DNA of 12,381 bases. It comes from a virus. Lineage: Duplodnaviria > Heunggongvirae > Uroviricota > Caudoviricetes. Made by a program: the position numbers and the translations under genes. The notes below the pieces were generated by a model. It did not search any database, was not told the DNA's origin, and was given only the letters and a program-made list of their open reading frames with translations. The stretch lies in IMG/VR virus record IMGVR_UViG_2703718850_000011; one strand, 5' to 3'. Positions 1 through 12,381 of the stretch are shown in pieces (position 1 is the first letter of the stretch; every line of letters starts with the position of its first letter).

Positions 1-486
1 TTAACGGATAAACAGCCAGATCAGCAGACACACCATCACCAGCACAGCAAAATCCATCAGGCTTGCCACATCCCATGCACATGATTCAAAACCGCCCCAC
101 CACGGCATATCATACGCCTGCAATACCCGAACATTTCAATCCAGCGATTATTCAGTCTGGGTGTGTTCGCGCACAATGAAGAACGTACAACCAGAGCCTA
201 CACAACCACAGCACAAACTGCATGAAGGCAAGGTGTTATATCTATAACCTCTCCTGTTTTCATCAACAAACAAAAATCAATTCCCGCCCCAAGGGGAAAA
301 TGATATCGTGAAGTCGATGCAAAAAAGTGTTGCACTCGTGCTATCCCTTGTCGTTAGCGGAGGTTGCGAAAGTCAACAGATAAAGTTATAGTTACACCGA
401 TGCATAAGCATTGCTTAAAATTTAACAACATTCCCTATTAGACTTGAGAATACTGTTAACAACACCCAACAAACTAGGAGTAAAGC

Positions 487-531
487 ATGATTAGAAACTT
501 TCGATTCTCTGATGAGCATCCGGATTTCTGA
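487..531 (+). CDS. Candidate leader peptide ORF, 14 codons (MIRNFRFSDEHPDF)
   Basis: Consensus Shine-Dalgarno AGGAG at 476-480 with 6-nt spacer to ATG 487. Lies 40 nt upstream of the hairpin at 571-601 and about 70 nt upstream of the main ORF. Confidence 0.3.
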   Translation: MIRNFRFSDEHPDF

Positions 532-570
532 TTAGGCTCTAAAAGCACCGAAGTCGGGATATGAGTGCAC

Positions 571-601
571 AAGGGCGGTTTTTAACCGCCCTTAGCTTTT
601 T
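571..601 (+). promoter_or_regulatory. Terminator-like hairpin plus T-tract immediately 5' of the 602 start codon (possible attenuator or translational control element)
   Basis: Perfect inverted repeat AAGGGCGGT (571-579) / ACCGCCCTT (585-593) around a short T-rich loop, then AGC and TTTTT (597-601) running directly into ATG 602. Confidence 0.45.
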
Positions 602-1606
602 ATGGACCAAAGTATGACAATCGAATTCTGTCTGGCTGTCTTGACAAGTAAATCTGTGATAGCCCTTCTTAATTTTCTTTTTCTCGCTTTAGTAATAGTG
701 ATGGGAGCTCTGCTCGGAAGCACGCTTCGAACTGGAAAAAACAGCGATACTAGTGACAAAAAGTTCATTGGTAGCACGCATATGATAGGTATTGGTGCTG
801 CTTTTATCTGCGTCCCCTTCATAGCTTCATTTCTACATCTAAATTATCAGTCACTTTTGCTTCCGCTAGCCGATACAACAGCAGCCGTATACATTGAACA
901 GTTGTTCATGCTGATATCTCTTGCAGGCATAGCTTCCTATCTTGGTTATGGGCTACTTGATAACATTGCAAACAAAGTTCTTCAGAGCCAGGTGCAAGAG
1001 ATTGGCCAGGAGCAAAAAGAAGCCAAACACTCTATCGAAGCTTTAGTTAATGAGAATAAGCAAATCAAGAGCAATGAGAAAAAAATCAGGCTCGAACTGC
1101 TGTATTTGAAAGCTAAAGATGCTGTAGAGTCAGGTCAGCGATATGGTGAGAAAACAACTGAAGAAGATAAGCTAGCTTCTAAGAAGAAATACAATGATGC
1201 CCTTGCTTTTTTAGATGAGGGGCTTAGAGAAATCAATGAAGAAGATGACTATCATTCATTTGACAGATTCATGGTTTTGAAAGCATTTACCCTAAAGCGA
1301 ATTGATGATATTGCAGGCGCGCTGGAAATTGTTAAAAAATTATTAGTGAAAGATAAAACAAATCCAGTCTTGCTTTACAACATGGGTTGTTACCTTTTGC
1401 TATCTAAGCAGCATAAAGATGAACAAGAAGTTAAAGATTTCATTATGAAAGCTTTGACTGTTACTCCAGAGAAAGAGGCGCATAAACCCTTGCAGAAAAA
1501 AATCATAGAAAAAGTTTTGGCGCGCTTGGATTCAGATATACAGGATCTGTTTAATGATGATGAGTTAGCCAGAATCAGAGAGATGGTTGGGAGCAAAGCA
1601 AACTAG
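602..1606 (+). CDS. Hypothetical membrane protein: three predicted N-terminal TM helices, coiled coil, TPR-like helical C-terminal domain; AT-rich cargo gene
   Basis: Only long ORF in the AT-rich island. Hydrophobic segments at about residues 8-38, 60-80 and 97-118; charged coiled coil at about 125-165; helical-repeat C-terminal region. Codon usage strongly A/T-biased, unlike the neighbouring phage genes. Followed by an intrinsic terminator. No obvious Shine-Dalgarno before ATG 602 or the alternative ATG 614. Confidence 0.7.
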   Translation: MDQSMTIEFCLAVLTSKSVIALLNFLFLALVIVMGALLGSTLRTGKNSDTSDKKFIGSTHMIGIGAAFICVPFIASFLHLNYQSLLLPLADTTAAVYIEQLFMLISLAGIASYLGYGLLDNIANKVLQSQVQEIGQEQKEAKHSIEALVNENKQIKSNEKKIRLELLYLKAKDAVESGQRYGEKTTEEDKLASKKKYNDALAFLDEGLREINEEDDYHSFDRFMVLKAFTLKRIDDIAGALEIVKKLLVKDKTNPVLLYNMGCYLLLSKQHKDEQEVKDFIMKALTVTPEKEAHKPLQKKIIEKVLARLDSDIQDLFNDDELARIREMVGSKAN

Positions 1607-1622
1607 CCCATCCTTGTTCTTT

Positions 1623-1652
1623 GAAGCGCCTGTAAAATGGCGCTTGTTTTTG
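1623..1652 (+). terminator. Rho-independent terminator downstream of the 602-1606 gene
   Basis: Stem AAGCGCC (1624-1630) / GGCGCTT (1639-1645) with 8-nt loop TGTAAAAT, followed by GTTTTTG, starting 17 nt after the stop codon. Confidence 0.65.
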
Positions 1653-1831
1653 AGTTCTATACTTTCAGCAGAAAAATAATTTCAGGACTATTTTCAGACA
1701 AATTCATATAAAATAAATAATACCAACATTGAGTATCCGCTCTGTAATTATATAATCTATGTACAGGCTCCTATCGAACGCAAGTCAGCCAGCTGTAGTA
1801 CGTTCTTGCATACGACATGCCGCAGCTTCTG

Positions 1832-2395
1832 TTATTCTGGCACGAAATTCCTCACCGACTTCAAATCCGCCATATTATTCAGCTCTTCCTTCATCTCCCG
1901 CTGGCGACGATAAATCTCGTCATTGCGATCGACCTGTGCCTGAACCATTGCAGTAAGCAGTTCATCCAGTTGTTGCATCGACAGTTTCACCTGCTGGTTT
2001 TCTGCATCGCCCCATACCATGGTTTTTCGCGCAGTGTCAGACTTTGATGCCATTACTGCCGGATAAAGACGAGCCAGTGAGTCGGCCCCAGCATTCCAGG
2101 TACGACCGTTCCATTCGAACGTGAACGGCTGCGCTTCCTGTTCTGTGCGCCAGGCTTCGATTTCCCGCTTTTTGGCATCTCTGGCTGCGGCAATAACTTC
2201 AGGCGTGACTGTGAACGGGGCGATTTCACCCCATCTGCCACTCTGCAGTTCCTGCCAGATTTGCCGGCCAGTTTCTGCTGTATCATTTGCCGAAGCTGTG
2301 TATGGAAGTGGCATTTCCATACCTGAAAACACGACCATGCAGTCAACATCTCCGGTTTCAAGATACCTTTGTTCGCTGATTTTTTTTATTTTCAT
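1832..2395 (-). CDS. Putative tail fibre assembly / chaperone protein (assigned by position), 187 aa from ATG at 2395
   Basis: Immediately downstream of the tail fibre gene with coupled start (TGATG). Size is typical for tail fibre assembly proteins (lambda Tfa 194 aa). I do not recognise the conserved Tfa sequence itself, so the family assignment is positional only. The six-frame ORF starts at GTG 2398; the ATG at 2395 is the likelier start. Confidence 0.5.
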   Translation of the reverse strand: MKIKKISEQRYLETGDVDCMVVFSGMEMPLPYTASANDTAETGRQIWQELQSGRWGEIAPFTVTPEVIAAARDAKKREIEAWRTEQEAQPFTFEWNGRTWNAGADSLARLYPAVMASKSDTARKTMVWGDAENQQVKLSMQQLDELLTAMVQAQVDRNDEIYRRQREMKEELNNMADLKSVRNFVPE

Positions 2396-3858
2396 CACAT
2401 CGTCCTTATAAAAGCAGCAATAATAAACTCACCTTCTCCGGTGTAATCCGGAGTTCCGGATAATGCACGGTAAACACCCGGCAATGTGTGCTTCTCTGTA
2501 CCAGAAAGCCCAATCTTCGGCGACGATAATGCTCCATCCGGAACACTGAATACCACGGGAGTAAGGACGGAGCCCGGGTAATATTGCCCTCGTACGACGC
2601 TAGCTGTTTTAGTGCTGCCACGGCTATTAAAGGCTGCCAGTGTTATGCTTCCAGCATACGGATCACCATAATTATCGTTTGTGGTCATGCTCAGGATTTT
2701 GGCAATATCATACAGGTCAATATTTATTTTCTCCCATTCACTCAGTGAAGGGCCATGTATGGCATCGTATGTTGCCCGATACAGTTCACCGTTCATCCCG
2801 TAAAAAACAGCCATCTTCAGCATCAGCGGGACAGTAAGGTTATTCCGCATCTCATCAGCGAAAAATAAATCAATCACACCTGTAAACTGTACTTCCGGTA
2901 TAATTTCGCAGTCAGCGCTGACCGTATACCGCCCCGGTGTGGCATTTGAGATCCAGTCAAGAAGCACTTCCTTCGACGAAAAGCTGAGAACGTCACCTTT
3001 TGTGAAGATATGCCCGAATCCCAGACTTCCTGCAACAGCGGCCCGCCCCTGCGTTCTGTCATAAATGTCTGACTGAAGCCCATAATTTCCGCCTGCTGCT
3101 GAGTTTCCACTATTTCCATTGATACCCAGAACGTCACACATCTCTTCGGCTGTGGATTGTGACAACAGCTGTTTCCCTTTTTCAGAAACAGGAGCCAGAG
3201 AACACTGCCCGTTACCGCTAAAACTGGGAAACCCATCTTCACCGGATGGAAGACGGCCTAACGCAGTCAGAACGGGATTTAAAGGCTGTTTTCCGTCCAG
3301 CATCTTCATTATCGTTACGGAAAACGCCGGGTCATTACCCAGCGCCTCCGCCAGTTCGTTCAGCGTGTCCAGGGTTTCCGGAGAAGAACCCACAAGAGCA
3401 GCAAGCAGTTTGCGGACAAACGCCGCATTCACTGTTTCCAGACCTGAAGCATCGTCCGGTGGTGTCGGTGTCATAGGGGTACCGGTGAAGACCGGACTAT
3501 CCAGTGACGCTTTTGTCTTCACCTCATTCATGACCTTACTGACTGCAAGGGATGTGGCGGCCTCTGTCTGCGAAGTGCTGTCAGTACGGTTACTGAGCTT
3601 GACAACTCCCTTTGTGGTCGTACTGGCATCTTCCAGGCCCACAGCAGATGCAATCTCCTCTGCCCGTTTTGCCGCATTTTCTGCGCGTGTTGCTGCAGAC
3701 TCAGCAGAACTTTTGCTCTGCACTGCCACCGCTGCACTACCTGCAGCCTCTTCCGCCTTACCGAATGCCTCGCCGGCCAATGATGCCGCCGCTGCTTCAT
3801 AGCCCGCCGCGGTGGATGCGCTCTGTGCCGCTGCCGTTTCAGAAGACCTGGCGTTCAT
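2395..3858 (-). CDS. stf: Side tail fibre protein, C-terminal fragment (487 aa from first ATG); frame stays open upstream to about 4155 without a start codon
   Basis: Ala/Ser-rich shaft repeats (KTSETNA..., SKSSAESAATRAENAAKRAEEIASAV...LEDASTTTKGVVKLS) followed by a globular C-terminal domain, with a small putative chaperone gene immediately downstream (1-nt TGATG overlap). The N-terminal part of a full-length fibre is absent. Confidence 0.75.
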   Translation of the reverse strand: MNARSSETAAAQSASTAAGYEAAAASLAGEAFGKAEEAAGSAAVAVQSKSSAESAATRAENAAKRAEEIASAVGLEDASTTTKGVVKLSNRTDSTSQTEAATSLAVSKVMNEVKTKASLDSPVFTGTPMTPTPPDDASGLETVNAAFVRKLLAALVGSSPETLDTLNELAEALGNDPAFSVTIMKMLDGKQPLNPVLTALGRLPSGEDGFPSFSGNGQCSLAPVSEKGKQLLSQSTAEEMCDVLGINGNSGNSAAGGNYGLQSDIYDRTQGRAAVAGSLGFGHIFTKGDVLSFSSKEVLLDWISNATPGRYTVSADCEIIPEVQFTGVIDLFFADEMRNNLTVPLMLKMAVFYGMNGELYRATYDAIHGPSLSEWEKINIDLYDIAKILSMTTNDNYGDPYAGSITLAAFNSRGSTKTASVVRGQYYPGSVLTPVVFSVPDGALSSPKIGLSGTEKHTLPGVYRALSGTPDYTGEGEFIIAAFIRTM

Positions 3859-4155
3859 CTCGGATGTTTTTGCCTCCTTCGCGGCATTTTCTGCCGCCGT
3901 TGCCGAGGAGGCTGCACCACTGGCGCTTGATGATGCGTTCGTTTCTGATGATTTTGCTGCCTCTTTTGAGGCCTCCGCCTCACGGGCTGAGGTGGCAGCT
4001 TCTGACGCTTTCGCGGTCGCGGTGGATGCTGAGGTGGCGGCTGATTGTTGTGACGCTGCCGCATTCGTTTCTGACGTTTTCGCGGCAACAGCACTGGTGG
4101 CCGCCGCGCTTTTCGAGGACTCTGCAGCGGCTGCACTTTTTGATGCCTCAGAGTC
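3590..4155 (-). repeat. Imperfect tandem Ala/Ser-rich peptide repeats of the tail fibre shaft (coding repeat)
   Basis: Translation in the stf frame: EASKSAAAAESSKSAATSAVAAKTSETNAAASQQSAATSASTATAKASEAATSAREAEASKEAAKSSETNASSSASGAASSATAAENAAKEAKTSEMNARSSETAAAQSAS... The recurring KxSETNA / SSA units generate spurious long ORFs in all other frames. Confidence 0.55.
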
Positions 4156-4394
4156 TCATGTAACTGCGCCGTTAACCCGGACGTGCTGACGTCCCGCCCG
4201 GCAATCCGTACCTGATACCAGCCGTCGCTCAGTTTCTGACGAAACGCCGGGAGCTGTGTGGCCAGTGCGCGGATGGCTTCAGCCCCCGTTTTCACACGAA
4301 GGTCGATGCGGCGGCCAAATCGTTGTAAATCCCCGTAAAGGCAGATGCGCGCCATGCCCGGTGACGCCAGAGGGAGTGTGTGCGTCGCTGCCAT
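3855..4394 (-). pseudogene. I: Tail tip assembly protein I, N-terminal about 82 codons only, continuing out of frame into tail-fibre repeat sequence
   Basis: Starts MAATHTLPLASPGMARICLYGDLQRFGRRIDLRVKTGAEAIRALATQLPAFRQKLSDGWYQVRIAGRDVSTSGLTAQLHETL (gpI-like). From about 4148 downward the frame yields an Arg/Pro/Gln-rich low-complexity string, which is the alternate-frame reading of the Ala/Ser-rich tail-fibre repeats that run in another frame. Confidence 0.7.
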
Positions 4395-5035
4395 TTGTCG
4401 GTATACCTCTCTCGTTTGCTCAGTTGTTCAGGAATATGGTGCAGCAGCTCGCCGTCACCACAGTAAATGGCGGCATGATTCGGCACCGATGAACCAAAGC
4501 AGCACAGCAGCACATCGCCCGGTTGTGCTGATGACAACGGCACCTGATACAGCCCTGTGGCCTCCAGATTATCCAGATAGAGATTCTGACCGTGACGCCA
4601 CCAGTCATCCTCACGATGAAAATCCGGCATCTCAATCCCCGCCAGATGATAAGCATCCCGGAACAGCGTGTAACAGTCCGTCACCCCGTGCTCAAAGCAC
4701 CGCCCGGTAAGATGCGGCACACAGCGGAACTTATGAATCGTCCCCCGGCAGACCAGCCACCACGGCAAATCACTCTGCACCTGCAGCCGCCGGTCGGCCT
4801 CACTCAGCCAGGGCAGACCACCGGGGTGGCTGTGGACCAGCGCCACTATCTCACCCTGCATTTCTGCCTGCAGCCAGTCCTCCGGAACCATCCGGAAATA
4901 CGCCTCCGGCTCACCGGAGATATTCACGCAGGGGAAATATCTTTCCCCCTCCGGCGTGCTTACCACGAAGCCGCACGACTCCGCTGGCGCACATCGCCGG
5001 GCGTGCGCCAGAATCGCTGATTCTGTCTCTGTCAT
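4292..5035 (-). CDS. K: Tail tip assembly protein K with JAB/MPN and NlpC/P60 domains, 247 aa from ATG at 5035
   Basis: JAMM motif HSHPGGLPWLSEAD (H-x-H-x7-S-x2-D) followed by an NlpC/P60-like region with candidate catalytic Cys (GVTDCYTLF) and His. The six-frame ORF extends to 5077, but the ATG at 5035 (MTETESAIL...) sits 1 nt after the L stop and is the likelier start. Overlaps the I start by about 100 nt, as in lambda. Confidence 0.85.
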   Translation of the reverse strand: MTETESAILAHARRCAPAESCGFVVSTPEGERYFPCVNISGEPEAYFRMVPEDWLQAEMQGEIVALVHSHPGGLPWLSEADRRLQVQSDLPWWLVCRGTIHKFRCVPHLTGRCFEHGVTDCYTLFRDAYHLAGIEMPDFHREDDWWRHGQNLYLDNLEATGLYQVPLSSAQPGDVLLCCFGSSVPNHAAIYCGDGELLHHIPEQLSKRERYTDKWQRRTHSLWRHRAWRASAFTGIYNDLAAASTFV

Positions 5036-5039
5036 GGGA

Positions 5040-5738
5040 TTACTGCGAAAGTTTGTTAATGGAAAGGAAGCCGCCAAAGTTGCCGACGTTATTGCGGAAC
5101 TTACAACCGCTCAGGCATTTGCTGCATTTATCCTTCGTGATATCGGACGTTGGCTGGTCATATTCATCCGCGACCGCCGGACCGTGATAACCGCACTCAT
5201 CGCCGCGATAGGTCCAGGTGCAGGTGTTGGCCAGCATGATACGTCCCGGAAAAACAGCGCCGTCCGTTTCCGTCGGCGTGGACAGTACAAAGGAGGCACT
5301 CACCGCGCTCAGTTCGCTGCACTGCTCAATGCGCCAGCGGCTGATCACCTCCTGCTCCGGATCGGCGTCACTGTTTCCGTTGACGAAGTTCACCGCATCC
5401 AGAAAACGGGCGTAAACCTTACGCCGGACCACCGTTCCGCCGACCAGACTCTGCAGATCTTCCGCCATCCCGGTGACCATACCGTACAGGTTAGAAACCG
5501 TCAGCGTGGGGCGCGTACTGGTGCCTTTGCCATTCAGTTCAAAACCACTCCCCTGAATGGGATACGGCTGATACTGTCGCCCCTGCCAGGTGACCGGCTC
5601 ACCTTTTTCGTTCTGCTCATTACAGAAAAAATAACGTTCTCCACCGACCTCTGTCAGGTCGATTTCCCAGAGCACCACGCTGGCCGACTGCTCCGCACGG
5701 GTGCATTCATTCAGTGTTTCCTGCCGGATATCCTGCAT
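5040..5738 (-). CDS. L: Tail tip protein L, 232 aa
   Basis: 232 aa, the lambda gpL length. C-terminal cysteine cluster (TCTWTYRGDECGY ... CSKCLSGCKF) typical of gpL. Gene order H-M-L-K. Confidence 0.9.
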   Translation of the reverse strand: MQDIRQETLNECTRAEQSASVVLWEIDLTEVGGERYFFCNEQNEKGEPVTWQGRQYQPYPIQGSGFELNGKGTSTRPTLTVSNLYGMVTGMAEDLQSLVGGTVVRRKVYARFLDAVNFVNGNSDADPEQEVISRWRIEQCSELSAVSASFVLSTPTETDGAVFPGRIMLANTCTWTYRGDECGYHGPAVADEYDQPTSDITKDKCSKCLSGCKFRNNVGNFGGFLSINKLSQ

Positions 5739-6067
5739 CAGTTCACCACCTGTTCAAATTCTGCGCTGAACTCAACACGCAGCATACTGACCCGCGACGA
5801 CCATTTTGCGCAGGTCACCTTTATCTGCCGCCACTCATAAGGCGGCGTCCACAGAAAGGATTTCCAGCCCCCGTGCTCAGCCAGAAACGACTCAAGCGCC
5901 GTGGCCTCCCAACGGGGAACAGAAAGCGTCACGCTGTACGTTTTCAGGTCGGCATTCAGCCCGGCAGGCGCTCGCTGGGAATAGCCATCACCAAAGCGCA
6001 CCTTTCTTACGGAAGGGGCCGAAGCCACATCCATACCGGGTTTCACTTTCCAGCGGAAGGTTTTCAT
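5738..6067 (-). CDS. M: Tail tip protein M, 109 aa
   Basis: 109 aa, the lambda gpM length. Position between H and L; ATGA overlap with H stop and with L start. Recognisable gpM sequence (FRWKVKPGMD..., WKSFLWTPPYEW). Confidence 0.88.
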   Translation of the reverse strand: MKTFRWKVKPGMDVASAPSVRKVRFGDGYSQRAPAGLNADLKTYSVTLSVPRWEATALESFLAEHGGWKSFLWTPPYEWRQIKVTCAKWSSRVSMLRVEFSAEFEQVVN

Positions 6068-8559
6068 CGTCCACCTCCGGAGAACAGACCACCATCGCGC
6101 ATCTGCCCGGTCACAACATCCATTGCCGCCTTACGGGCTACGTCATAAACCGCCTTCAGCGCCTGTGGCCCTATCTGACCGTTCGTGCCGTCGTTGTTAA
6201 TCACCACATGGTTATTCTGCTCAAACGTCCCGGACGCCTGCGAGCGGCTGTCCGCCATGCTGCCCGGTGTACCGACATAACCACCGGTGGCATAGCCGCG
6301 CATCAGCCGGTAGAGATTTCCCACGCCAATCCGGCTGGTTGCCTCCTTCGTGAAGACAAATTCACCACGGTGAACAATCCCCGCTGGCTCATATTTGCCG
6401 CCGGTTCCCGTAAATCCTCCGGTTGCAAAATGGAATTTCGCCGCAGCGGCCTGAATGGCTGTACCGCCTGACGCGGATGCGCCGCCACCAACAGCCCCGC
6501 CAATGGCGCTGCCGATACTCCCGACAATCCCCACCATTGCCTGCTTAAGCAGAATTTCTGTCATCATGGACAGCACGGAACGGGTGAAGCTGCGCCAGTT
6601 CTGCTCACTGCCGGTCAGCATCGCCGCCATATTCTGTGCAATACCATCAAAGGTCTGCGTGGCTGCACTTTTTACCTGCAACATACTGTCCGTGGCGCTC
6701 TCTTCCCACTCACTCCAGCCGGACTTCAGGCCTGCCATCCAGCTCCCGCGAAGCTGGTCTTCAGCCGCCCAGGTCTTTTTCTGCTCTGACATGACGTTAT
6801 TCAGCGCCAGCGGATTATCGCCATACTGTTCCTTCAGGCGCTGTTCCGTGGCTTCCCGTTCTGCCTGCCGGTCAGTCAGTCCCCGGCTTTTCGCATCAAT
6901 GGCGGCCCGTTTTGCCCGTTGCTGCTGTGCGAATTTATCCGCCTGCTGCGCCAGCGCGTTCAGGCGCTCCTGATACGTAACCTTGTCGCCAAGTGCAGCC
7001 AGCTGGCGTTTGTACTCCAGCGTCTCATCTTTATGCGCCAGCAGGGATTTCTCCTGTGCAGACAGCTGGCGACGTTGCGCCGCCTCCTCCAGTACCGCGA
7101 ACTGACTCTCCGCCTTCCACAAATCCCGGCGCTGCTGGCTGATTTTCTCATTTGCTCCGGCATGCTTCTCCAGCGTCCGGAGTTCAGCCTGAAGCGTCAG
7201 CAGGGCAGCATGAGCACTGTCTTCCTGACGATCGCCCGCAGACACCTTCACGCCGGACTGTTTCGGCTTTTTCAGCGTCGCTTCATAATCCTTTTTCGCC
7301 GCCACCATCAGCGTGTTGTAATCTGCCTGCAGGATTTTTCCGTCTTTCAGTGCCTTATTCAGTTCCTCCTGACGGGCGGTATATTTCTCCAGCGGTGTCT
7401 GCAGGCGTTCGTAAGCCTTCTGCGCCTCTTCGGTATATTTCAGCCGTGACGCTTCGGTATCGCTCTGCTGCTGCGCATTTTTGTCCTGTTGACTCTGCTG
7501 CTCAGCCTTCTTTCGGGCGGCTTCAAGCGCAAGACGGGCCTTTTCACGATCATCCCAGTAACGCGCCCGCGCTTCATCGTTAACAAAATAATCATCCTTG
7601 CGCAGATTCCAGATGTCGTCTGCTTTCTTAAACGCAGCCTCTGCCTTAATCAGCATCTCCTGCGCGGTATCAGGACGACCAATATCCAGCACCGCATCCC
7701 ACATGGATTTGAATGCCCGTGCTGTCCTGTCTGCCCAGGTCTCCAGCGTGTCCATGTTCTCTTTCAGGCGGCGGGTCTGGTCATCAAACCCTTTCGTTGC
7801 GGCTTCGTTCGCCGCCTGCAATGCCCCGGCTTCATCGCCGGAACGCTGCAACTGAGCAACATACGCAATCTGTTCCGCCGTCACGTTATGGAACTGGCGT
7901 GCCATCGCCGTCAGCCCCGACGTCGGGTCTGTGGTCAGCTTCCCGAAGGCTTCAGCGACCTTGTCCACCTCCACGCCGGATGCAGAAGAGAAACGCGCCA
8001 CACTCTGGCTGATGGACGCAATCTGAGCCTCACCGCTTACCCCCGCCTTAACCAGTGCGCTGAGTGACTCGCTGGTCTGGTTAAACGTCAGCCCTGCCGC
8101 CTGCCCGGCTCTGGACAGGACCAGCATACGATCTGCCGTCAGACCCGACTGATGACCGGAAAGGACCAGCGTTTTGTTGAAATCGGACAGGGTTGAGTTG
8201 CCCTGATACCAGGCATACGCCAGCGCACCGGTCGCCACCGCCAGCGAGGTGGCCCCGACCATCGGCAGGGTGATCGCACCGGCAAGCCCCCTGAACATGG
8301 GGATCATCCCGCCGAAGGAGTCCTTAACCTGACCACCCTGTTGCAGCAGGATCAGCCACGGACTCTGCCCGCCTGCAAGCTGCGTGGCCACGTCGGTGAA
8401 CTGCGCAGGCAGCATACGCATGGCAGCTTTATACTGCCCGACGGAAATCCCCGCTTTCTGTGCAGCCAGTGCCTGTCGGCTCAGCGACTGTTCAACGACT
8501 GCCGCTGTTTTTTTCGCATCACTTTCCGTACCGGAAAAATGACGCCTGACTCTGGCCAT
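6064..8559 (-). CDS. H: Tail tape measure protein (lambda gpH family), 831 aa from first ATG; native 5' end apparently lost
   Basis: About 830 aa with coiled-coil-rich centre and glycine-rich C-terminal region (GIVGSIGSAIGGAVGGGASASGG), located immediately upstream of M-L-K-I. The same frame is open from 8628 and encodes ...GDLVVDLSLDAARFDEQ upstream of the ATG at 8559 with no start codon, so the native N-terminus (about 22 aa in lambda H, 853 aa) is clipped. Confidence 0.9.
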   Translation of the reverse strand: MARVRRHFSGTESDAKKTAAVVEQSLSRQALAAQKAGISVGQYKAAMRMLPAQFTDVATQLAGGQSPWLILLQQGGQVKDSFGGMIPMFRGLAGAITLPMVGATSLAVATGALAYAWYQGNSTLSDFNKTLVLSGHQSGLTADRMLVLSRAGQAAGLTFNQTSESLSALVKAGVSGEAQIASISQSVARFSSASGVEVDKVAEAFGKLTTDPTSGLTAMARQFHNVTAEQIAYVAQLQRSGDEAGALQAANEAATKGFDDQTRRLKENMDTLETWADRTARAFKSMWDAVLDIGRPDTAQEMLIKAEAAFKKADDIWNLRKDDYFVNDEARARYWDDREKARLALEAARKKAEQQSQQDKNAQQQSDTEASRLKYTEEAQKAYERLQTPLEKYTARQEELNKALKDGKILQADYNTLMVAAKKDYEATLKKPKQSGVKVSAGDRQEDSAHAALLTLQAELRTLEKHAGANEKISQQRRDLWKAESQFAVLEEAAQRRQLSAQEKSLLAHKDETLEYKRQLAALGDKVTYQERLNALAQQADKFAQQQRAKRAAIDAKSRGLTDRQAEREATEQRLKEQYGDNPLALNNVMSEQKKTWAAEDQLRGSWMAGLKSGWSEWEESATDSMLQVKSAATQTFDGIAQNMAAMLTGSEQNWRSFTRSVLSMMTEILLKQAMVGIVGSIGSAIGGAVGGGASASGGTAIQAAAAKFHFATGGFTGTGGKYEPAGIVHRGEFVFTKEATSRIGVGNLYRLMRGYATGGYVGTPGSMADSRSQASGTFEQNNHVVINNDGTNGQIGPQALKAVYDVARKAAMDVVTGQMRDGGLFSGGGR

Positions 8560-8609
8560 CTGCTCGTCAAATCTGGCCGCATCCAGACTTAAATCAACGA
8601 CCAGATCGC

Positions 8610-9746
8610 CTAACTGACCTTCGAGTAGTCACGGGACAACTGTTCGTAGGAAACGCCAAGACCGGCGGCGATATACCGCAGCAGCGCCTGTTCAAGCGCA
8701 GAAAATCCATTGTCTGAATCCTGCGCGGTCTGCAGTTTCAGATCATCCCCAGGGAAAAGGTGCGGAATTTTGACACCGCCCAGCGTCACGTGATTCGTGT
8801 CATACCAGCTGGAGAACTTCTCCAGAATATTAATAAGCGGATTATCCTTCTGCCCCTGCGGCGCACCGGCGATATATTCAAAGGCCTTTTCGGTATCAAG
8901 TTCACTTTCGATTGTGGCTGCATACATGGCCTTCACAATGGCCGACTGAAGCTGTGTTACCTGCAGGGAATCGAGCATCTTCAGCCGCTCCATGACGCTG
9001 TAAAACTGATTAGCCCCACGGGTCTGCCCGTCCTCCACCGGCTCGAAAATATGCAGCATGGCCGGACGCCCGGTGGGAAGTTCACGCGGGATCCGTTCCC
9101 ATCCTCCACTACCAGAGAACGGAAAATCATCCTCACAGATGTGGTACGCGACGGCACGGCCATATCGATCGACCTCCACACCGGCCCGCAGAAAACGGTT
9201 CCCCATACCGTGTCCAGGCGTGTCCACCCGTTTCGGACTCACGGCTTTAAAACGCGTACGGAATAACTGCGTGCTTTCCGTATCCCAGACCGGCTGCACA
9301 AAGATTTCGCCGTTAAACGCATGAACGCCCACACCTTCACGGATAAATTCCGTGAACGTGCGTTTTCCTTCCACGTCGATCTCGCCAAACATCCCTTCGG
9401 CGTATTCCGACCAGGCCGCCTCCACCTCATCGACAAAGCTTTTTGCTGCGGTCTCCCGCATCCCCAGCCAGCGCCAGTTCGGACGGTAGCTGATCAGAAA
9501 CATATGCCCGACAATGTGATCTTTATGCAGGGCCACCGCATTAGCCGCTATTCCGTTATTGCGCACCAGATCATCTGCCCGGGCATTCCCCAGACGCAAC
9601 GCGGGCAGCAGGGCCGCATCGGCACTCTGCGCCGGTGGCAACCACTCCGCCATTTGCCCGCCAAATCCTGCGCCGCCCCCGTTGTAGCTGAGACTCTCAC
9701 GAAGCGGAACGCCGTTCACATCAATCAGGACAGGCGTTAGTTTCAT
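8610..9746 (-). pseudogene. B: Portal protein (lambda gpB family), truncated: 378 codons, where lambda-type portals are about 530 aa
   Basis: The N-terminal and central portal regions are recognisable (DDLVRNNG, LFRTRFKAVSPKR, EPVEDGQTRGANQFYSVMERLKMLDSLQ, AIVKAMYAATIESELDT, LRYIAAGLGVSYEQLSR). The frame ends at TAG 8610-8612 and the C-terminal third is absent. The tape-measure frame begins within about 20 bp. Confidence 0.85.
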
Positions 9747-9949
9747 AACCTCACTCCCAGCGGACGACGGCGACGCCGGGTTGTCCCCAGTACCGACTCC
9801 GCATCATTGATCGCCCGGTTAAGCTCATCCAGAGAAGCCGCCGTATATTCAATTCTGCGACCATCTTTCTGGACAGACACCACCCGTTTACCGGTTAATA
9901 AATCAAGGCGCGCCTGACGCAGCGCCTGCAGTTCAGCGACTGTAACCAT
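9743..9949 (-). CDS. W: Head-tail joining / head completion protein gpW, 68 aa
   Basis: 68 aa, the same length as lambda gpW, with the conserved core TGKRVVSVQKDGRRIEYTA. Its stop overlaps the portal ATG (ATGA). The annotated start overlaps the end of A by 17 nt, so the exact start is uncertain. Confidence 0.85.
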   Translation of the reverse strand: MVTVAELQALRQARLDLLTGKRVVSVQKDGRRIEYTAASLDELNRAINDAESVLGTTRRRRRPLGVRL

Positions 9950-11861
9950 TCACTCCTCCGGACAGCTTCGCTGCCAGTTCTTTCAGGGTTGGCCGGGTCG
10001 TCTCTTCTTCCCGGGATTTTGCCAGTACAGCCAGATCAAGCTGCCAGCGTTGCACGGACACACGTAATGCCGCGTAGGCATACACCAGGCAGTCCAGCGC
10101 TTCGTTACGCCGCTTTTTGTTATCCCACAGCAGACGCATCTTTCCTTTTTCCCACTTCTCCACAAGCTCTTCCGCGACCAGTTGCTGCGCCTCTGTCTGC
10201 GAAAAAATCTCCGGATCATCAGGAAAACGGATGGCATACGACGTGGCTTCATCCACAGGCGTGGGATCGGCTTTCATACGGGCATAGAGAATTTCTTTTG
10301 CGGTGTCCGTCCCCACTTCACACAGATACACGCCCCGCTGATTGCGGGTTTTTGGCATGGTGATCACCGGCTTGCCATAGACAGATGCGCCTTTTACCGG
10401 CAGCACCCGGAAAACACCGTGTTTTTTTGACCTCTGATAAACGATTTCTCCATCGATCCCCCCGATGTCCCAGCAGACACGGGAAATAGTCATTTCGGTT
10501 CCGTCTGCATGGCGGTATTTTTTGTTGATCGCCGCATCCACACGTAACAGCGTCTCTTCCTCATCGGGACGCCCCATAATGATGATTTTATCCACCAGAA
10601 AGGCTTCCTCTCCCGGAGCCCATCCCCAGACATACATCTCAAAACGGTTTCGCTGCGAGTCAATGCCCGCCGTCAGATAAACCACCCGGGCAGGCACCGC
10701 CGCCGTGTAACGCACAACCTTATCCATCAGTACCTGGTGATCGAGTTTTTCGCCCACGGCCTCTTCCCAGGTCTCGCCCAGCGTGGTGTTCACAAAGGTT
10801 TTCAGGCCGTTGGGATCTTTCAGTGCATCCAGCCAGTCATAGACAATCTGTACCCAGGTGGTGAACGGACTGTACGCCGTCCAGATATGGAAAGTGATGG
10901 AGCGCGGCGGCGGAATTTCATCACCCCGGTCGCTGAAAAACATCAGACCGTCACGGGTCCACATGCCCGTGTTTTCACAGATCCACCGCCCGTTGCTCTG
11001 GTCAAGCTCAGACTGATGGATCACGCAGCCATGATGTTCACAGAGGTAGAAAACGCTTTCTGGGCTGTCCTTCTCCCATTTAAGGCCAAAAGGCGTGGAT
11101 TCATCGCCAAATTTCAGATACTGCTCCTCCCCACAGTGCGGGCAGGGCACATAAAAACGCATGAAATGCGCCGACTCGTTGGCCGCTTTTTCGATCTGGC
11201 AGGAGCCTTTTATTTTAGGCGTCGAGCCGCGAATGGATTTTGGCCATACAGAGCCCTCAATACGCTTATCCCCCAGCAGGGTTGGCGAGCCCTCTTTTTC
11301 AACATCCGGCTCGAACGAGGAAAGTTCGTCATAGCAGACCACATCCACGGATTTTTCACGGTAGTTTTTGGCGGCAGCACCACCCAGGCACCAGAAACCC
11401 ACACGGGAAGTGAATCTTTTTAATGTCAGCGTGTTATCCCGGTGCTTACGTCCCAGCCAGGGGGAAAGAATTTTCAGACAGGGAACATCCCGTAATGTTG
11501 ACTCCACATGAGACTTCATAAAATCTTCAGCGGCAGAATCCGTAGGCTGAAACAGAAGACTGTTACGGTTTTTATGCTCAATAAAGTAACCAATAACGCC
11601 CATCAGCATTTTGGTGTAACCGACTCGAGCTGATTTTATAAGATTAATCGTGCGGATCCGGTCATTACCCATGCAGTTCATTATTGCCACCTGAAATGGC
11701 AACGTCTTCCACCGCCCAGCAAGATAAGAGGACTCCGGGGGCAAATAATAATTTTGATCGGCCCATTCAACGGTGGTTACAGGCAGTGGGCGTAAAAGCC
11801 CACGAAGTGCCACTCCACAAACAACAGCAAAGTTATTTAGCTGCTTCTCTGAGGTATTCAT
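9933..11861 (-). CDS. A: Terminase large subunit (lambda gpA family), 642 aa
   Basis: Length matches lambda gpA (641 aa). Contains the P-loop-like KSARVGYTK motif and conserved blocks ([57 protein letters not shown]) recognisable as the gpA terminase family. Sits between Nu1 and W. Confidence 0.93.
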
Positions 11862-12381
11862 CCAGCATCTCCGGTAACTTCTCTGCCGTTGATGCGCATC
11901 GGTTTGCCGCCTTTGCTATATCGGTTTTCAGGAAATCAAGCATAGCGGGCGTCAGTGCCGAAAACTGTCTCTGCATGGACAATGGAATGGAGTCAAGAAT
12001 GGCAGAGATCTCCTGTGCCAGTCTTCCCAGAGCAAAAAGGCAAAACCCTGTATCAATGACCTGCCCACTGTCGCGGGCATTTTTCAGTTCCTGTGCATCT
12101 GCCTGTGCCTTCGTCAGTCGGTAACGTTCGTAATCAATGGTGCCGGGCTGAAGGTCTGATTCGCTGGCAGCCCTCAAATCCTCGACCTCTTTACGGAGTT
12201 TTTCGTTTTCAATATCAGCTTCGCGCTGCGCATACCACTGAATGGCAGCAGTTGTATCAAAAACTGATTCAGTCCCTTTCCCTCCACCAGAAACTAGTGG
12301 TACCCCCTGACTCTGCCAGGCGGTGATAGTCCTGACATCAACGCCAAAAATATCGGCCAGTTTTTTCTTATTGACGTTCAT
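11833..12381 (-). CDS. nu1: Terminase small subunit (lambda Nu1 family), 182 aa, apparently complete; start codon is at the window edge
   Basis: Translation [30 protein letters not shown]... has the N-terminal helix-turn-helix typical of Nu1, the right length (about 181 aa) and overlaps the start of the large terminase gene by 29 nt, as in lambda. Confidence 0.9.

Follow-up and report, generated by a model that had tools for sequence, protein, structure and literature searches.

Deletion scar between the tail genes I and stf in a lambdoid prophage remnant beside potB of Escherichia coli

The stretch of DNA analysed here (the window, 12,381 nucleotides in its full length) carries an open reading frame that begins like the lambda-type tail tip protein I, ends in an Arg/Pro/Gln-rich string and lies next to a side tail fibre gene. 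What joined these sequences, and do the joined frames still encode anything? The window is a lambdoid prophage remnant, read on the minus strand, beside potB in E. coli. Our reference was the prophage of E. coli 1303 (NZ_CP009166.1; its coordinates are given as L002), which is structurally complete. The features that the argument needs are as follows.

4292 to 5077, minus strand: K, JAB/MPN and NlpC/P60 tail tip assembly protein (Pfam Prok-JAB and NLPC_P60), intact, directly upstream of I'
4149 to 4394, minus strand: I' fragment, codons 1-82 of the 223 codons of lambda-type tail tip protein I; as in lambda, the 3' end of K runs into it
4149 to 4151, no strand: deletion junction 2, a 3-bp microhomology common to the stf-side and I-side parental sequences
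3855 to 4148, minus strand: read-through of the I' frame into the stf +1 frame, 97 codons and a TGA stop at 3855-3857
4156 to 4158, minus strand: TGA closing the stf frame upstream of junction 2
3856 to 3858, minus strand: first possible start in the stf frame, ATG, equal to Met279 of intact Stf; within ATGA it overlaps the I' chimera's stop
2395 to 4151, minus strand: stf' remnant, from the last two bases of codon 181 to codon 765 and the stop
1832 to 2398, minus strand: tfa (tail fibre assembly, DUF4376; PF14301, E 2e-15), intact, directly downstream of stf'
8611 to 8612, no strand: deletion junction 1, portal codon 378 joined to tape-measure codon 5

The element and its intact relative

The window follows the 1303 prophage collinearly at 99.6-100% identity and departs from it by two internal deletions. 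Three gap-free blocks account for it: window 1-4151 corresponds to L002 9001-13151 (99.98% identity over 4151 bp, with a single mismatch, at window 760; this block includes stf'), window 4149-8612 to L002 17636-22099 (99.55% over 4464 bp), and window 8611-12381 to L002 from 28884 (100%). The gaps between the blocks are 4487 bp and 6786 bp, and with flanks that match an intact relative so closely the resemblance is not fortuitous. The 1303 prophage has every gene of the block in the order of lambda: K, I (223 aa), J (1132 aa), an unbroken stf (765 aa) and tfa. The window has the gene order and orientation of both this prophage and the lambda K-I-J-(lom)-stf-tfa block; its K, I codons 1-82, stf codons 181-765 and tfa match their 1303 counterparts at 99.6-100% identity. 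For K, the annotation in 1303, as in thousands of genomes, reads C40 family peptidase, and the 1303 counterpart of tfa is annotated as a DUF4376 protein. The genes potB, potA, pepT, roxA and phoQP follow the element in three contigs that carry it (L006, L010 and L011) and likewise in 1303, and the element occupies the same chromosomal site as its intact relative.

The preliminary description had spoken of a second deletion junction. By comparison with 1303, the DNA lost from between I codon 82 and stf codon 181 amounts to exactly 4487 bp, and the other junction, at 8611-8612 between portal and tape measure, accounts for 6786 bp with a 2-bp TA microhomology. Overall, the portal C-terminus, protease, decoration protein, major capsid, FI, FII, Z, U, V, G, T, the start of H, the I C-terminus, J and the stf N-terminus are deleted or truncated, and I, stf, portal and tape measure are cut exactly at the junctions, as in a cryptic prophage. 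Because the I-J-stf deletion is accompanied by the portal-tape measure deletion, the prophage is predicted from its gene content to be unable to build heads or tails, or infectious particles, on its own. An IS3 copy lies upstream of Nu1 in the same prophage. An Rfam scan at gathering thresholds found no RNA families in the window.

Junction 2 and the gene fragments beside it

What is missing at junction 2 is the 3' part of I from codon 83 to codon 223, J in full (1132 aa) and codons 1-180 of stf. The 4487 bp are the exact sum of 429 nt from I, 3399 nt from J, 541 nt from stf and two spacers, one of 60 nt between I and J and one of 58 nt between J and stf. In 1303, J is followed by stf with no lom in between, and the window has therefore lost none. 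Compared with lambda and 1303, the window is thus without the C-terminal 141 codons of I, J and the first 180 codons of stf, and what remains of I and stf is joined out of frame. When the parental sequences were set beside the junction, CAG on the plus strand (CTG, Leu82 of I, on the minus strand) was the sole sequence that they shared, and the flanks stay I and stf DNA right up to it. Alignment to this intact lambda-like tail region fixed both breakpoints to the base. A short direct repeat, for which a check had been proposed, is present at the junction, but it is only 3 bp long.

J had been reported as absent between I and stf, and the searches agree with this. With the 1132-aa J of 1303 as tblastn query, the best E value was 5.5 in the window and 8.6 in L006, and L010 and L011 gave nothing at E <= 1e-3. 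No J-like sequence was found in the 21 kb around the window in the source genome, either between I and stf or elsewhere in the element.

The I-like ORF (3855-4394, minus strand) encodes 179 aa. It had been said to match gpI for about 82 codons and then, at about 4148, to enter the tail fibre gene in the wrong frame; tblastn with I of 1303 aligned window 4394-4149 to exactly residues 1-82 at 100% identity (E 1e-53), and from codon 83 the ORF follows the stf +1 frame. I' begins MAATHTLPLASPGMARICLYG, as lambda gpI does. The Lambda_tail_I domain (PF06805) was recognized at residues 14-85 of the ORF (E 6.5e-21, profile positions 2-71 of 83) and is cut at junction 2. The C-terminal part of I (about residues 134-223 in lambda) is absent, since full-length I of 1303 matches the window at residues 1-82 only (tblastn). 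I' is therefore a gene fragment and not a functional member of its family. Its upstream neighbour is K (4292-5077) and J is missing, so the K-I-J placement is not seen. In the lambda tail tip only residues 134/135-223 of gpI are resolved, touching gpJ and gpH, and this part forms a trimeric plug of the tail tip that contacts J and the C-terminus of the tape measure (PMC10721106, PMC12617516). The resolved part falls within the deleted codons 83-223.

The Arg/Pro/Gln-rich string is 97 residues long, with 24.7% Arg, 20.6% Pro and 18.6% Gln. The DNA of 3855-4151 is identical to stf of 1303, and that intact gene has no stop in its +1 frame for 100 codons (gene nt 536-835), a stretch that the junction joins at nt 542. 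The read-through extends over 97 codons because the +1 frame of stf is natively open there, and we judge this tail to be a non-functional frame artefact.

On the other side of the junction, stf' has lost the N-terminal collar (tail-attachment) domain, the linker and the beginning of the coiled-coil shaft. In lambda Stf the collar takes up residues 1-91, the linker 92-101 and the proximal coiled coil 102-393 (PMC12617516); in the window stf homology begins at gene nt 542, codon 181, and the collar domain ('prophage tail fiber N-terminal domain') is absent. Retained are the Ala/Ser-rich coiled-coil shaft, Phage_fiber_2 (PF03406, E 3.9e-11) and the C-terminal receptor-binding part. The preliminary wording 'tail-fibre repeat sequence' holds for the protein, whose shaft is of low complexity and rich in Ala and Ser (37% Ala and 24% Ser in this frame), but not for the DNA, in which Tandem Repeats Finder detected no tandem repeat. 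The shaft contains short imperfect repeats of 16-28 nt. This Ala/Ser-rich frame was described as opening at a stop near 4156 without a start codon, and minus-strand translation of 2395-4200 gave the same picture: the TGA at 4156-4158 sits in I-derived DNA, and no ATG, GTG or TTG precedes the ATG at 3858 in the stf frame. AAGGAGG, a Shine-Dalgarno-like sequence, ends 14 nt upstream of this ATG, and the 487-aa ORF that begins there is called as a gene in L005-L011. The ATG and its context already exist inside intact 1303 stf and were not made by the deletion.

Could the ORF with the Arg/Pro/Gln-rich tail be a genuine gene, either a natural I variant or a new functional fusion, that perhaps drives translation of stf' through the ATGA overlap? 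Its 179 codons are open, its stop overlaps an ATG preceded by AAGGAGG, and stf' and tfa are otherwise intact, with a single mismatch to 1303 in the region. Against this, the tail is the +1 frame of stf-identical DNA, a frame whose openness in the intact gene is a matter of composition, and the ATG, AAGGAGG and TGA all pre-exist within intact stf. The 179-aa chimera is on record as a called gene nowhere in an exact-product look-up, though contigs of the collection carry the DNA itself. No homologue of I with a natural tail of this kind was encountered, as I is adjacent to this stf in 0 of 4,993 matching E. coli records and 0 of 268 phage records (a record counted as adjacent if 80% or more of a 1301-bp query with junction 2 at its centre was covered). 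In addition, stf' has no collar, which is needed for tail attachment, and J, tube and head genes are missing from the element. We consider a genuine gene extremely improbable; the products of the I' chimera and of stf' are probably dead. In annotation, both the I-like ORF of 179 codons and the tail-fibre ORF of 487 codons are best marked as pseudogene fragments that stem from a single deletion event.

Origin of junction 2

Junction 2 is almost certainly a scar left when 4487 bp were spontaneously deleted from a lambda-like prophage beside potB. The ancestral order was K-I-J-stf-tfa, as preserved in 1303, and the 3-bp CAG is where I codon 82 was fused to stf codon 181, at the second base of the latter. 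The frame of I' runs on through the stop-free +1 frame of the stf shaft into what is probably a meaningless tail.

A scar of this kind supposes that the junction exists in the genome. An assembly artefact, in which I and stf were collapsed or mis-joined and the true genome has an intact I-J-stf region, could be suspected because the window comes from draft assemblies and the junction occurs in 0 of 5,426 complete E. coli genomes. Yet the same 38-nt junction string is present in L006 and L010 (GCA_900480535.1), in L011 (GCA_900478705.1) and in L008, an independent Logan assembly of a separate run (ERR3333574), and the window is 100% identical to the two NCBI assemblies and 99.99% identical to the Logan assembly. 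The junction lies inside contigs of 368 kb and 245 kb with normal flanks, and its breakpoints share 3 bp only, leaving no repeat to cause a collapse. Because it is identical in two NCBI assemblies and one independent read-archive assembly, we regard junction 2 as real and inherited, and an artefact as highly implausible. The exact junction string had no match in species-representative genomes or JGI metagenomes, so the allele is rare; it has presumably been passed on vertically within a small lineage.

As to the joining event, the breakpoints are without longer homology, an IS element or a site-specific recombination site, which points to illegitimate, probably recombinase-independent joining; replication slippage or microhomology-assisted end joining may have been responsible. 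The few shared bases, of which one copy is kept, and the lack of longer homology at the breakpoints are those of an illegitimate deletion. The scar itself suggests that microhomology was used; the calculated chance of at least 3 bp of microhomology in random joins is about 5%, and related junctions in other strains share 4-5 bp.

Specific machinery would be the other way to make such a deletion, namely an IS-mediated adjacent deletion, a tail-fibre invertase of the Pin/Cin/Gin type or homologous recombination between repeats. Invertase sites are present in the tail fibre genes of several phages, and the IS3 copy and the imperfect shaft repeats mentioned above could be cited in favour. At junction 2, however, there is no IS sequence or IS end; the window has no recombinase gene at or close to the junction, and no invertase gene is found among the window ORFs. 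A search for direct and inverted repeats over the deleted interval in 1303 found none that pairs the two breakpoints, the nearest repeat families being stf-stf or J-I at other positions, and a homology-driven deletion was rejected on this ground. Any of these mechanisms is very improbable; an enzyme acting in trans may have been involved. A microhomology-mediated illegitimate deletion that left dead gene fragments is the most likely reading of the sequence.

The junction created no regulatory signals in a promoter and terminator scan of 3600-4700, which yielded a single weak promoter-like site, within K, and, on the non-coding strand, three weak terminator-like hairpins, numbers close to those expected from shuffled sequence.

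Prophage decay and the tail fibre shaft

Five independent junctions at three different prophage loci end in stf codons ~147-198, at the start of the shaft:

window: I joined to stf codon 181
L005/L009: DUF968 gene joined to stf codon 198
L007: J C-terminus joined to stf codon 160
L001: K joined to stf at about codon 158, in a different prophage
L013: J fragment joined to stf at about codon 147, in a DLP12-like remnant

It is conceivable, though doubtful, that these codons form a fragile or recombination-prone site of recurrent deletion, at which E. coli prophages lose the J/tail-tip region. Several independent deletions in related prophages end within ~150 bp of the stf breakpoint of the window, at stf nt 554 there is a natural mosaic boundary with a tail fibre gene of a 112-kb record (H132), and a palindrome, TGCAGCGGCTGCA, with a 5-bp stem, lies 14 nt from junction 2. 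On the other hand, ascertainment bias is strong, since the queries that turned up all five junctions required a retained downstream stf and a broken upstream frame; there are only five events, the interval was picked after they had been seen, and the DNA has no tandem repeats. Chi sites are unsupported as the cause of the clustered endpoints: no exact Chi site was found in 31 kb, and the one 7-of-8 match, ACTGGTGG (L002 13093), adjoins the L005 breakpoint only. When the 5' 993 bp of stf were compared with complete E. coli genomes by BLAST, at least 80% was kept in 3,958 of 5,043 records; partial matches are dominated by mosaic divergence, and the table leaves the matter of a preferred endpoint unsettled. 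Such a hotspot could reflect a fragile site at the DNA level or a module boundary of natural tail-fibre mosaics.

Deletions, frameshifts and IS insertions are common in lambdoid prophages of E. coli (PMC2669165). In lambda PaPa, stf is inactivated by a frameshift within the coding region and tfa is kept (PMC10721106). The window resembles lambda PaPa in that stf is inactivated by a mutation within the gene while tfa is retained, but lambda PaPa has a frameshift in an otherwise complete, viable phage, whereas the 4.5-kb deletion of the window also took J and most of I. J and I are essential for tail assembly, and both are hit. Rac, e14, Qin and DLP12 of K-12 are defective or cryptic lambdoid prophages. 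Rac retains the N-terminal region of stf (stfR matches 1303 stf nt 1-905), which the window has lost. The cryptic lambdoid prophages of E. coli, such as the O157 Sakai pool (PMC2669165), are likewise integrated and have lost morphogenesis genes by internal deletions, and the element, like them, keeps scattered intact genes, the C-terminal part of the tail fibre with its chaperone, and a terminal cargo gene. Unlike other cryptic prophages, it is a young remnant with a near-identical intact relative that lets both deletions be mapped to the base.

In conclusion, this is ordinary prophage decay and no new kind of element. The significance is mainly for annotation: the Arg/Pro/Gln-rich ORF and the antisense ORFs over 3612-4189, all of them long, are not to be mistaken for genes. 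The sole wider question is whether the tail fibre shaft is a preferred endpoint of deletions. With both deletions, the potB-adjacent prophage is predicted to be non-viable in the lineage that carries it, and the near-identical intact copy in 1303 makes it a clean, base-resolved case of very recent prophage decay.

Gene order and the missing segment at junction 2

The long homology-supported ORFs of the window follow the lambda late-gene order on the minus strand, apart from one on the plus strand, and their assignments are borne out by Pfam.

Homology-supported ORFs of the window (ORF listing; Pfam families in brackets)
11833-12381, minus strand, Nu1
9933-11861, minus strand, terminase A
9743-9949, minus strand, W
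8610-9746, minus strand, portal fragment, 378 aa (Phage_portal_2)
6064-8559, minus strand, tape measure H (TMP_2 and Tape_meas_lam_C)
5738-6067, minus strand, M
5040-5738, minus strand, L
4292-5077, minus strand, K (Prok-JAB and NlpC/P60)
3855-4394, minus strand, I-like ORF, 179 codons (Lambda_tail_I, residues 14-85)
2395-3858, minus strand, tail-fibre ORF (Phage_fiber_2)
1832-2398, minus strand, tail fibre assembly gene, tfa (DUF4376)
602-1606, plus strand, single plus-strand gene

A 1301-bp query centred on junction 2 (window 4149-4151) was covered to 80% at no single place among 4,993 matching E. coli and 268 phage records. Nearly all matches consisted of the K/I half alone, with their start at query base 650 (window 4149). 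The best match to the whole window was E. coli 1303 (NZ_CP009166.1), with window 1-8612 matching at 99.8% in two pieces across 13,099 bp. According to its annotation, the 1303 region adjoining potB (L002) is a structurally complete lambdoid prophage running from terminase through head and tail genes to K, I, J, tail fibre and DUF4376. The window is collinear with it in three blocks.

Gap-free blastn blocks between the window and L002 (reverse complement)
Window 1-4151, L002 9001-13151, 99.98%, one mismatch
Window 4149-8612, L002 17636-22099, 99.55%, 20 mismatches
Window 8611-12381, L002 28884 onwards, 100%

Both breakpoints of junction 2 are thus defined against an intact lambda-like tail region, and the deletion proposed in the preliminary description, which had been made from the sequence alone, is confirmed as an observation and supported as an interpretation. 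The deletion took out 4487 bp (L002 13152-17638, record positions 1357741-1362227), made up of 429 nt of I, a 60-nt spacer, the 3399-nt J, a 58-nt spacer and 541 nt of the side tail fibre gene stf. The parental sequences read ...TTGATGCCTCAG|TGGCC... on the stf side and ...GCCGTCAGGCAG|AGTCTCATG... on the I side, and the window reads ...TTGATGCCTCAGAGTCTCATG... across the junction. CAG alone is common to the parents (coding strand CTG, Leu82 of I), so that of the short direct repeats looked for at this clean deletion a 3-bp microhomology was found and no longer repeat; neither an IS nor a recombinase gene is present at the site. The segment would have been lost by illegitimate recombination, through replication slippage or microhomology-assisted end joining. 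Since at least 3 bp of apparent microhomology is expected in about 5% of random joins by our calculation, the evidence for its use is modest; the 2-, 4- and 5-bp overlaps at other junctions of the prophage family add to it.

Carriers were traced by exact-sequence look-up of the 487-aa tail-fibre product and the 378-aa portal fragment. Over its 12,381 bases the window is 100% identical to GCA_900480535.1 (contig UDBR01000002.1, 368 kb) and GCA_900478705.1 (UCUN01000009.1, 245 kb), and it is 99.99% identical to the Logan assembly of run ERR3333574. A 38-nt junction-spanning string was found in all three. The breakpoints contain no repeat, which makes a mis-assembly very unlikely. The allele is rare, with no match among 5,426 complete E. 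coli genomes, species-representative genomes or JGI metagenome contigs.

The truncated I and stf reading frames

I of E. coli 1303 has 223 aa. The I-like ORF keeps codons 1-82 (MAATHTL...AQLHETL; I') and continues for 97 codons starting RHQKVQPLQSPRKARRPP, with 24.7% Arg, 20.6% Pro and 18.6% Gln. The Lambda_tail_I match breaks off at position 71 of the 83 in the profile. The window stf begins at the second base of codon 181, so the I frame enters the +1 frame of stf; the preliminary description had already called it the wrong frame. That frame is natively free of stops over nt 536-835 of intact stf, as expected of GCN-rich sequence, which explains the read-through. I' has the N-terminal domain of the I family; the C-terminal part and the gene context are missing, and it is best filed as a pseudogene fragment.

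The Ala/Ser-rich frame had been described as opening at a stop near 4156 without a start codon. Minus-strand translation of 2395-4200 places this stop at 4156-4158; from there the frame stays open as far as the tail-fibre C-terminus (37% Ala and 24% Ser over 4155-3859). The earliest ATG, GTG or TTG is the ATG at 3858 (Met279), where AAGGAGG ends 14 nt upstream and a TGA overlaps the ATG. All three elements are already inside intact stf, so they were not made by the deletion. The remnant, stf', retains the shaft, the repeats and tfa, lacks the N-terminal domain, and is likewise best filed as a pseudogene fragment. Antisense plus-strand ORFs of 183 and 125 codons over the shaft (window 3612-4189) have the same cause as the +1 read-through, the GCN-rich composition; such open stretches reach 288 codons in intact stf. 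They should not be annotated as genes.

In 1303, stf is a 765-aa frame without interruption, though PGAP marks the gene partial. RefSeq gives it as an incomplete pseudogene at L002 12589-13692 only, whereas the open frame spans L002 11395-13692; this call looks like an annotation artefact of a mosaic C-terminal part.

Other lesions and related prophages

Junction 1 (window 8611-8612, context 8559-9746) marks a 6786-bp gap against E. coli 1303, joined at a 2-bp TA microhomology. A TAG stop assembled at the junction ends the portal after codon 378 of 530, and the tape measure has neither its start codon nor its first 4 codons. This deletion also took the protease (C/Nu3), D, E, FI, FII, Z, U, V, G and T. 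Within the 5' tape measure, window 8017-8470 holds 13 of the 20 mismatches of its block in 450 bp, against 1 and 0 in the flanking blocks; it has the look of a small patch acquired by recombination from a different lambdoid tape-measure allele. An IS3-family element lies between the lysis/Bor/DUF1398 region and Nu1 in both the source genome (L010 5527-6689) and E. coli 1303 (L004 5887-7049). It is older than both deletions and probably already interrupted late-operon transcription.

The plus-strand ORF (602-1606, 334 aa), which runs against the other genes at the potB end of the prophage, matches Pfam YLATT (three-transmembrane domain) below threshold (21.3 bits, cut-off 26.7), and the C-terminal part of its product is long and helical. 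It is kept in all variants of the potB prophage, even the most deleted one (L005), and may be a cargo or defence-type gene.

The potB prophage carries different deletions in other strains, and two unrelated prophage remnants have similar scars.

Deletions ending in stf in other strains
GCA_002229595.1 and run SRR3989750 (L005, L009), DUF968 gene to stf codon 198, GCCA overlap, L005 9758-9761
SRR27242363 (L007), three deletions, of which one joins the J C-terminus to stf codon 160, L007 7597-7604
ZY22049, prophage near prfC (L001), K to about stf codon 158, L001 9438-9439
Z1323CEC0018, DLP12-like remnant (L013), J fragment to about stf codon 147, L013 ~6002-6004

Five independent endpoints, three in potB prophage variants and two in the unrelated remnants, thus lie in a stretch of about 150 bp where the Ala/Ser-rich shaft begins (L002 13101-13254, codons 147-198). 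No Chi site or tandem repeat explains this clustering, and it may be an ascertainment effect because every query that found these endpoints required the downstream part of stf. A true deletion hotspot at the start of the shaft is improbable.

In ZY22049, a gene with a SLATT domain and, after it, a reverse-transcriptase gene (L001 3917-5816) lie beside this other J-less remnant; the pair is of a retron-like defence type.

Lost tail functions

J, the central fibre and hub, had been reported absent between I and stf, and it is found nowhere else in the element. With J of 1303 as query, tblastn gave no match below E = 5.5 in the window or below E = 8.6 in L006, and none at E <= 1e-3 in L010 or L011 (L006 and L010 from GCA_900480535.1, L011 from GCA_900478705.1). 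The loci searched extend upstream over DUF968, RusA, Q, lysis, Bor and IS3 and downstream over the pot operon.

Structures of the lambda virion resolve gpI only over residues 134/135-223, which form a trimeric tail-tip plug bound to gpJ and to the gpH C-terminal helix (PMC10721106, PMC12617516); this part lies wholly inside the deletion. The Stf fibre of Ur-lambda is attached at the gpV/gpM junction by its collar, residues 1-91; a linker (92-101) and the proximal coiled coil (102-393) follow (PMC12617516). The collar, the linker and about 80 shaft residues are deleted here. Without them stf' would be unable to attach to a tail even if translated from Met279.

Frameshifts, deletions and IS insertions are typical of E. 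coli lambdoid prophages (PMC2669165), and laboratory lambda likewise carries a disrupted stf (PMC10721106). Junction 2 is the scar of a recent deletion in a defective prophage, an ordinary instance of textbook prophage decay.
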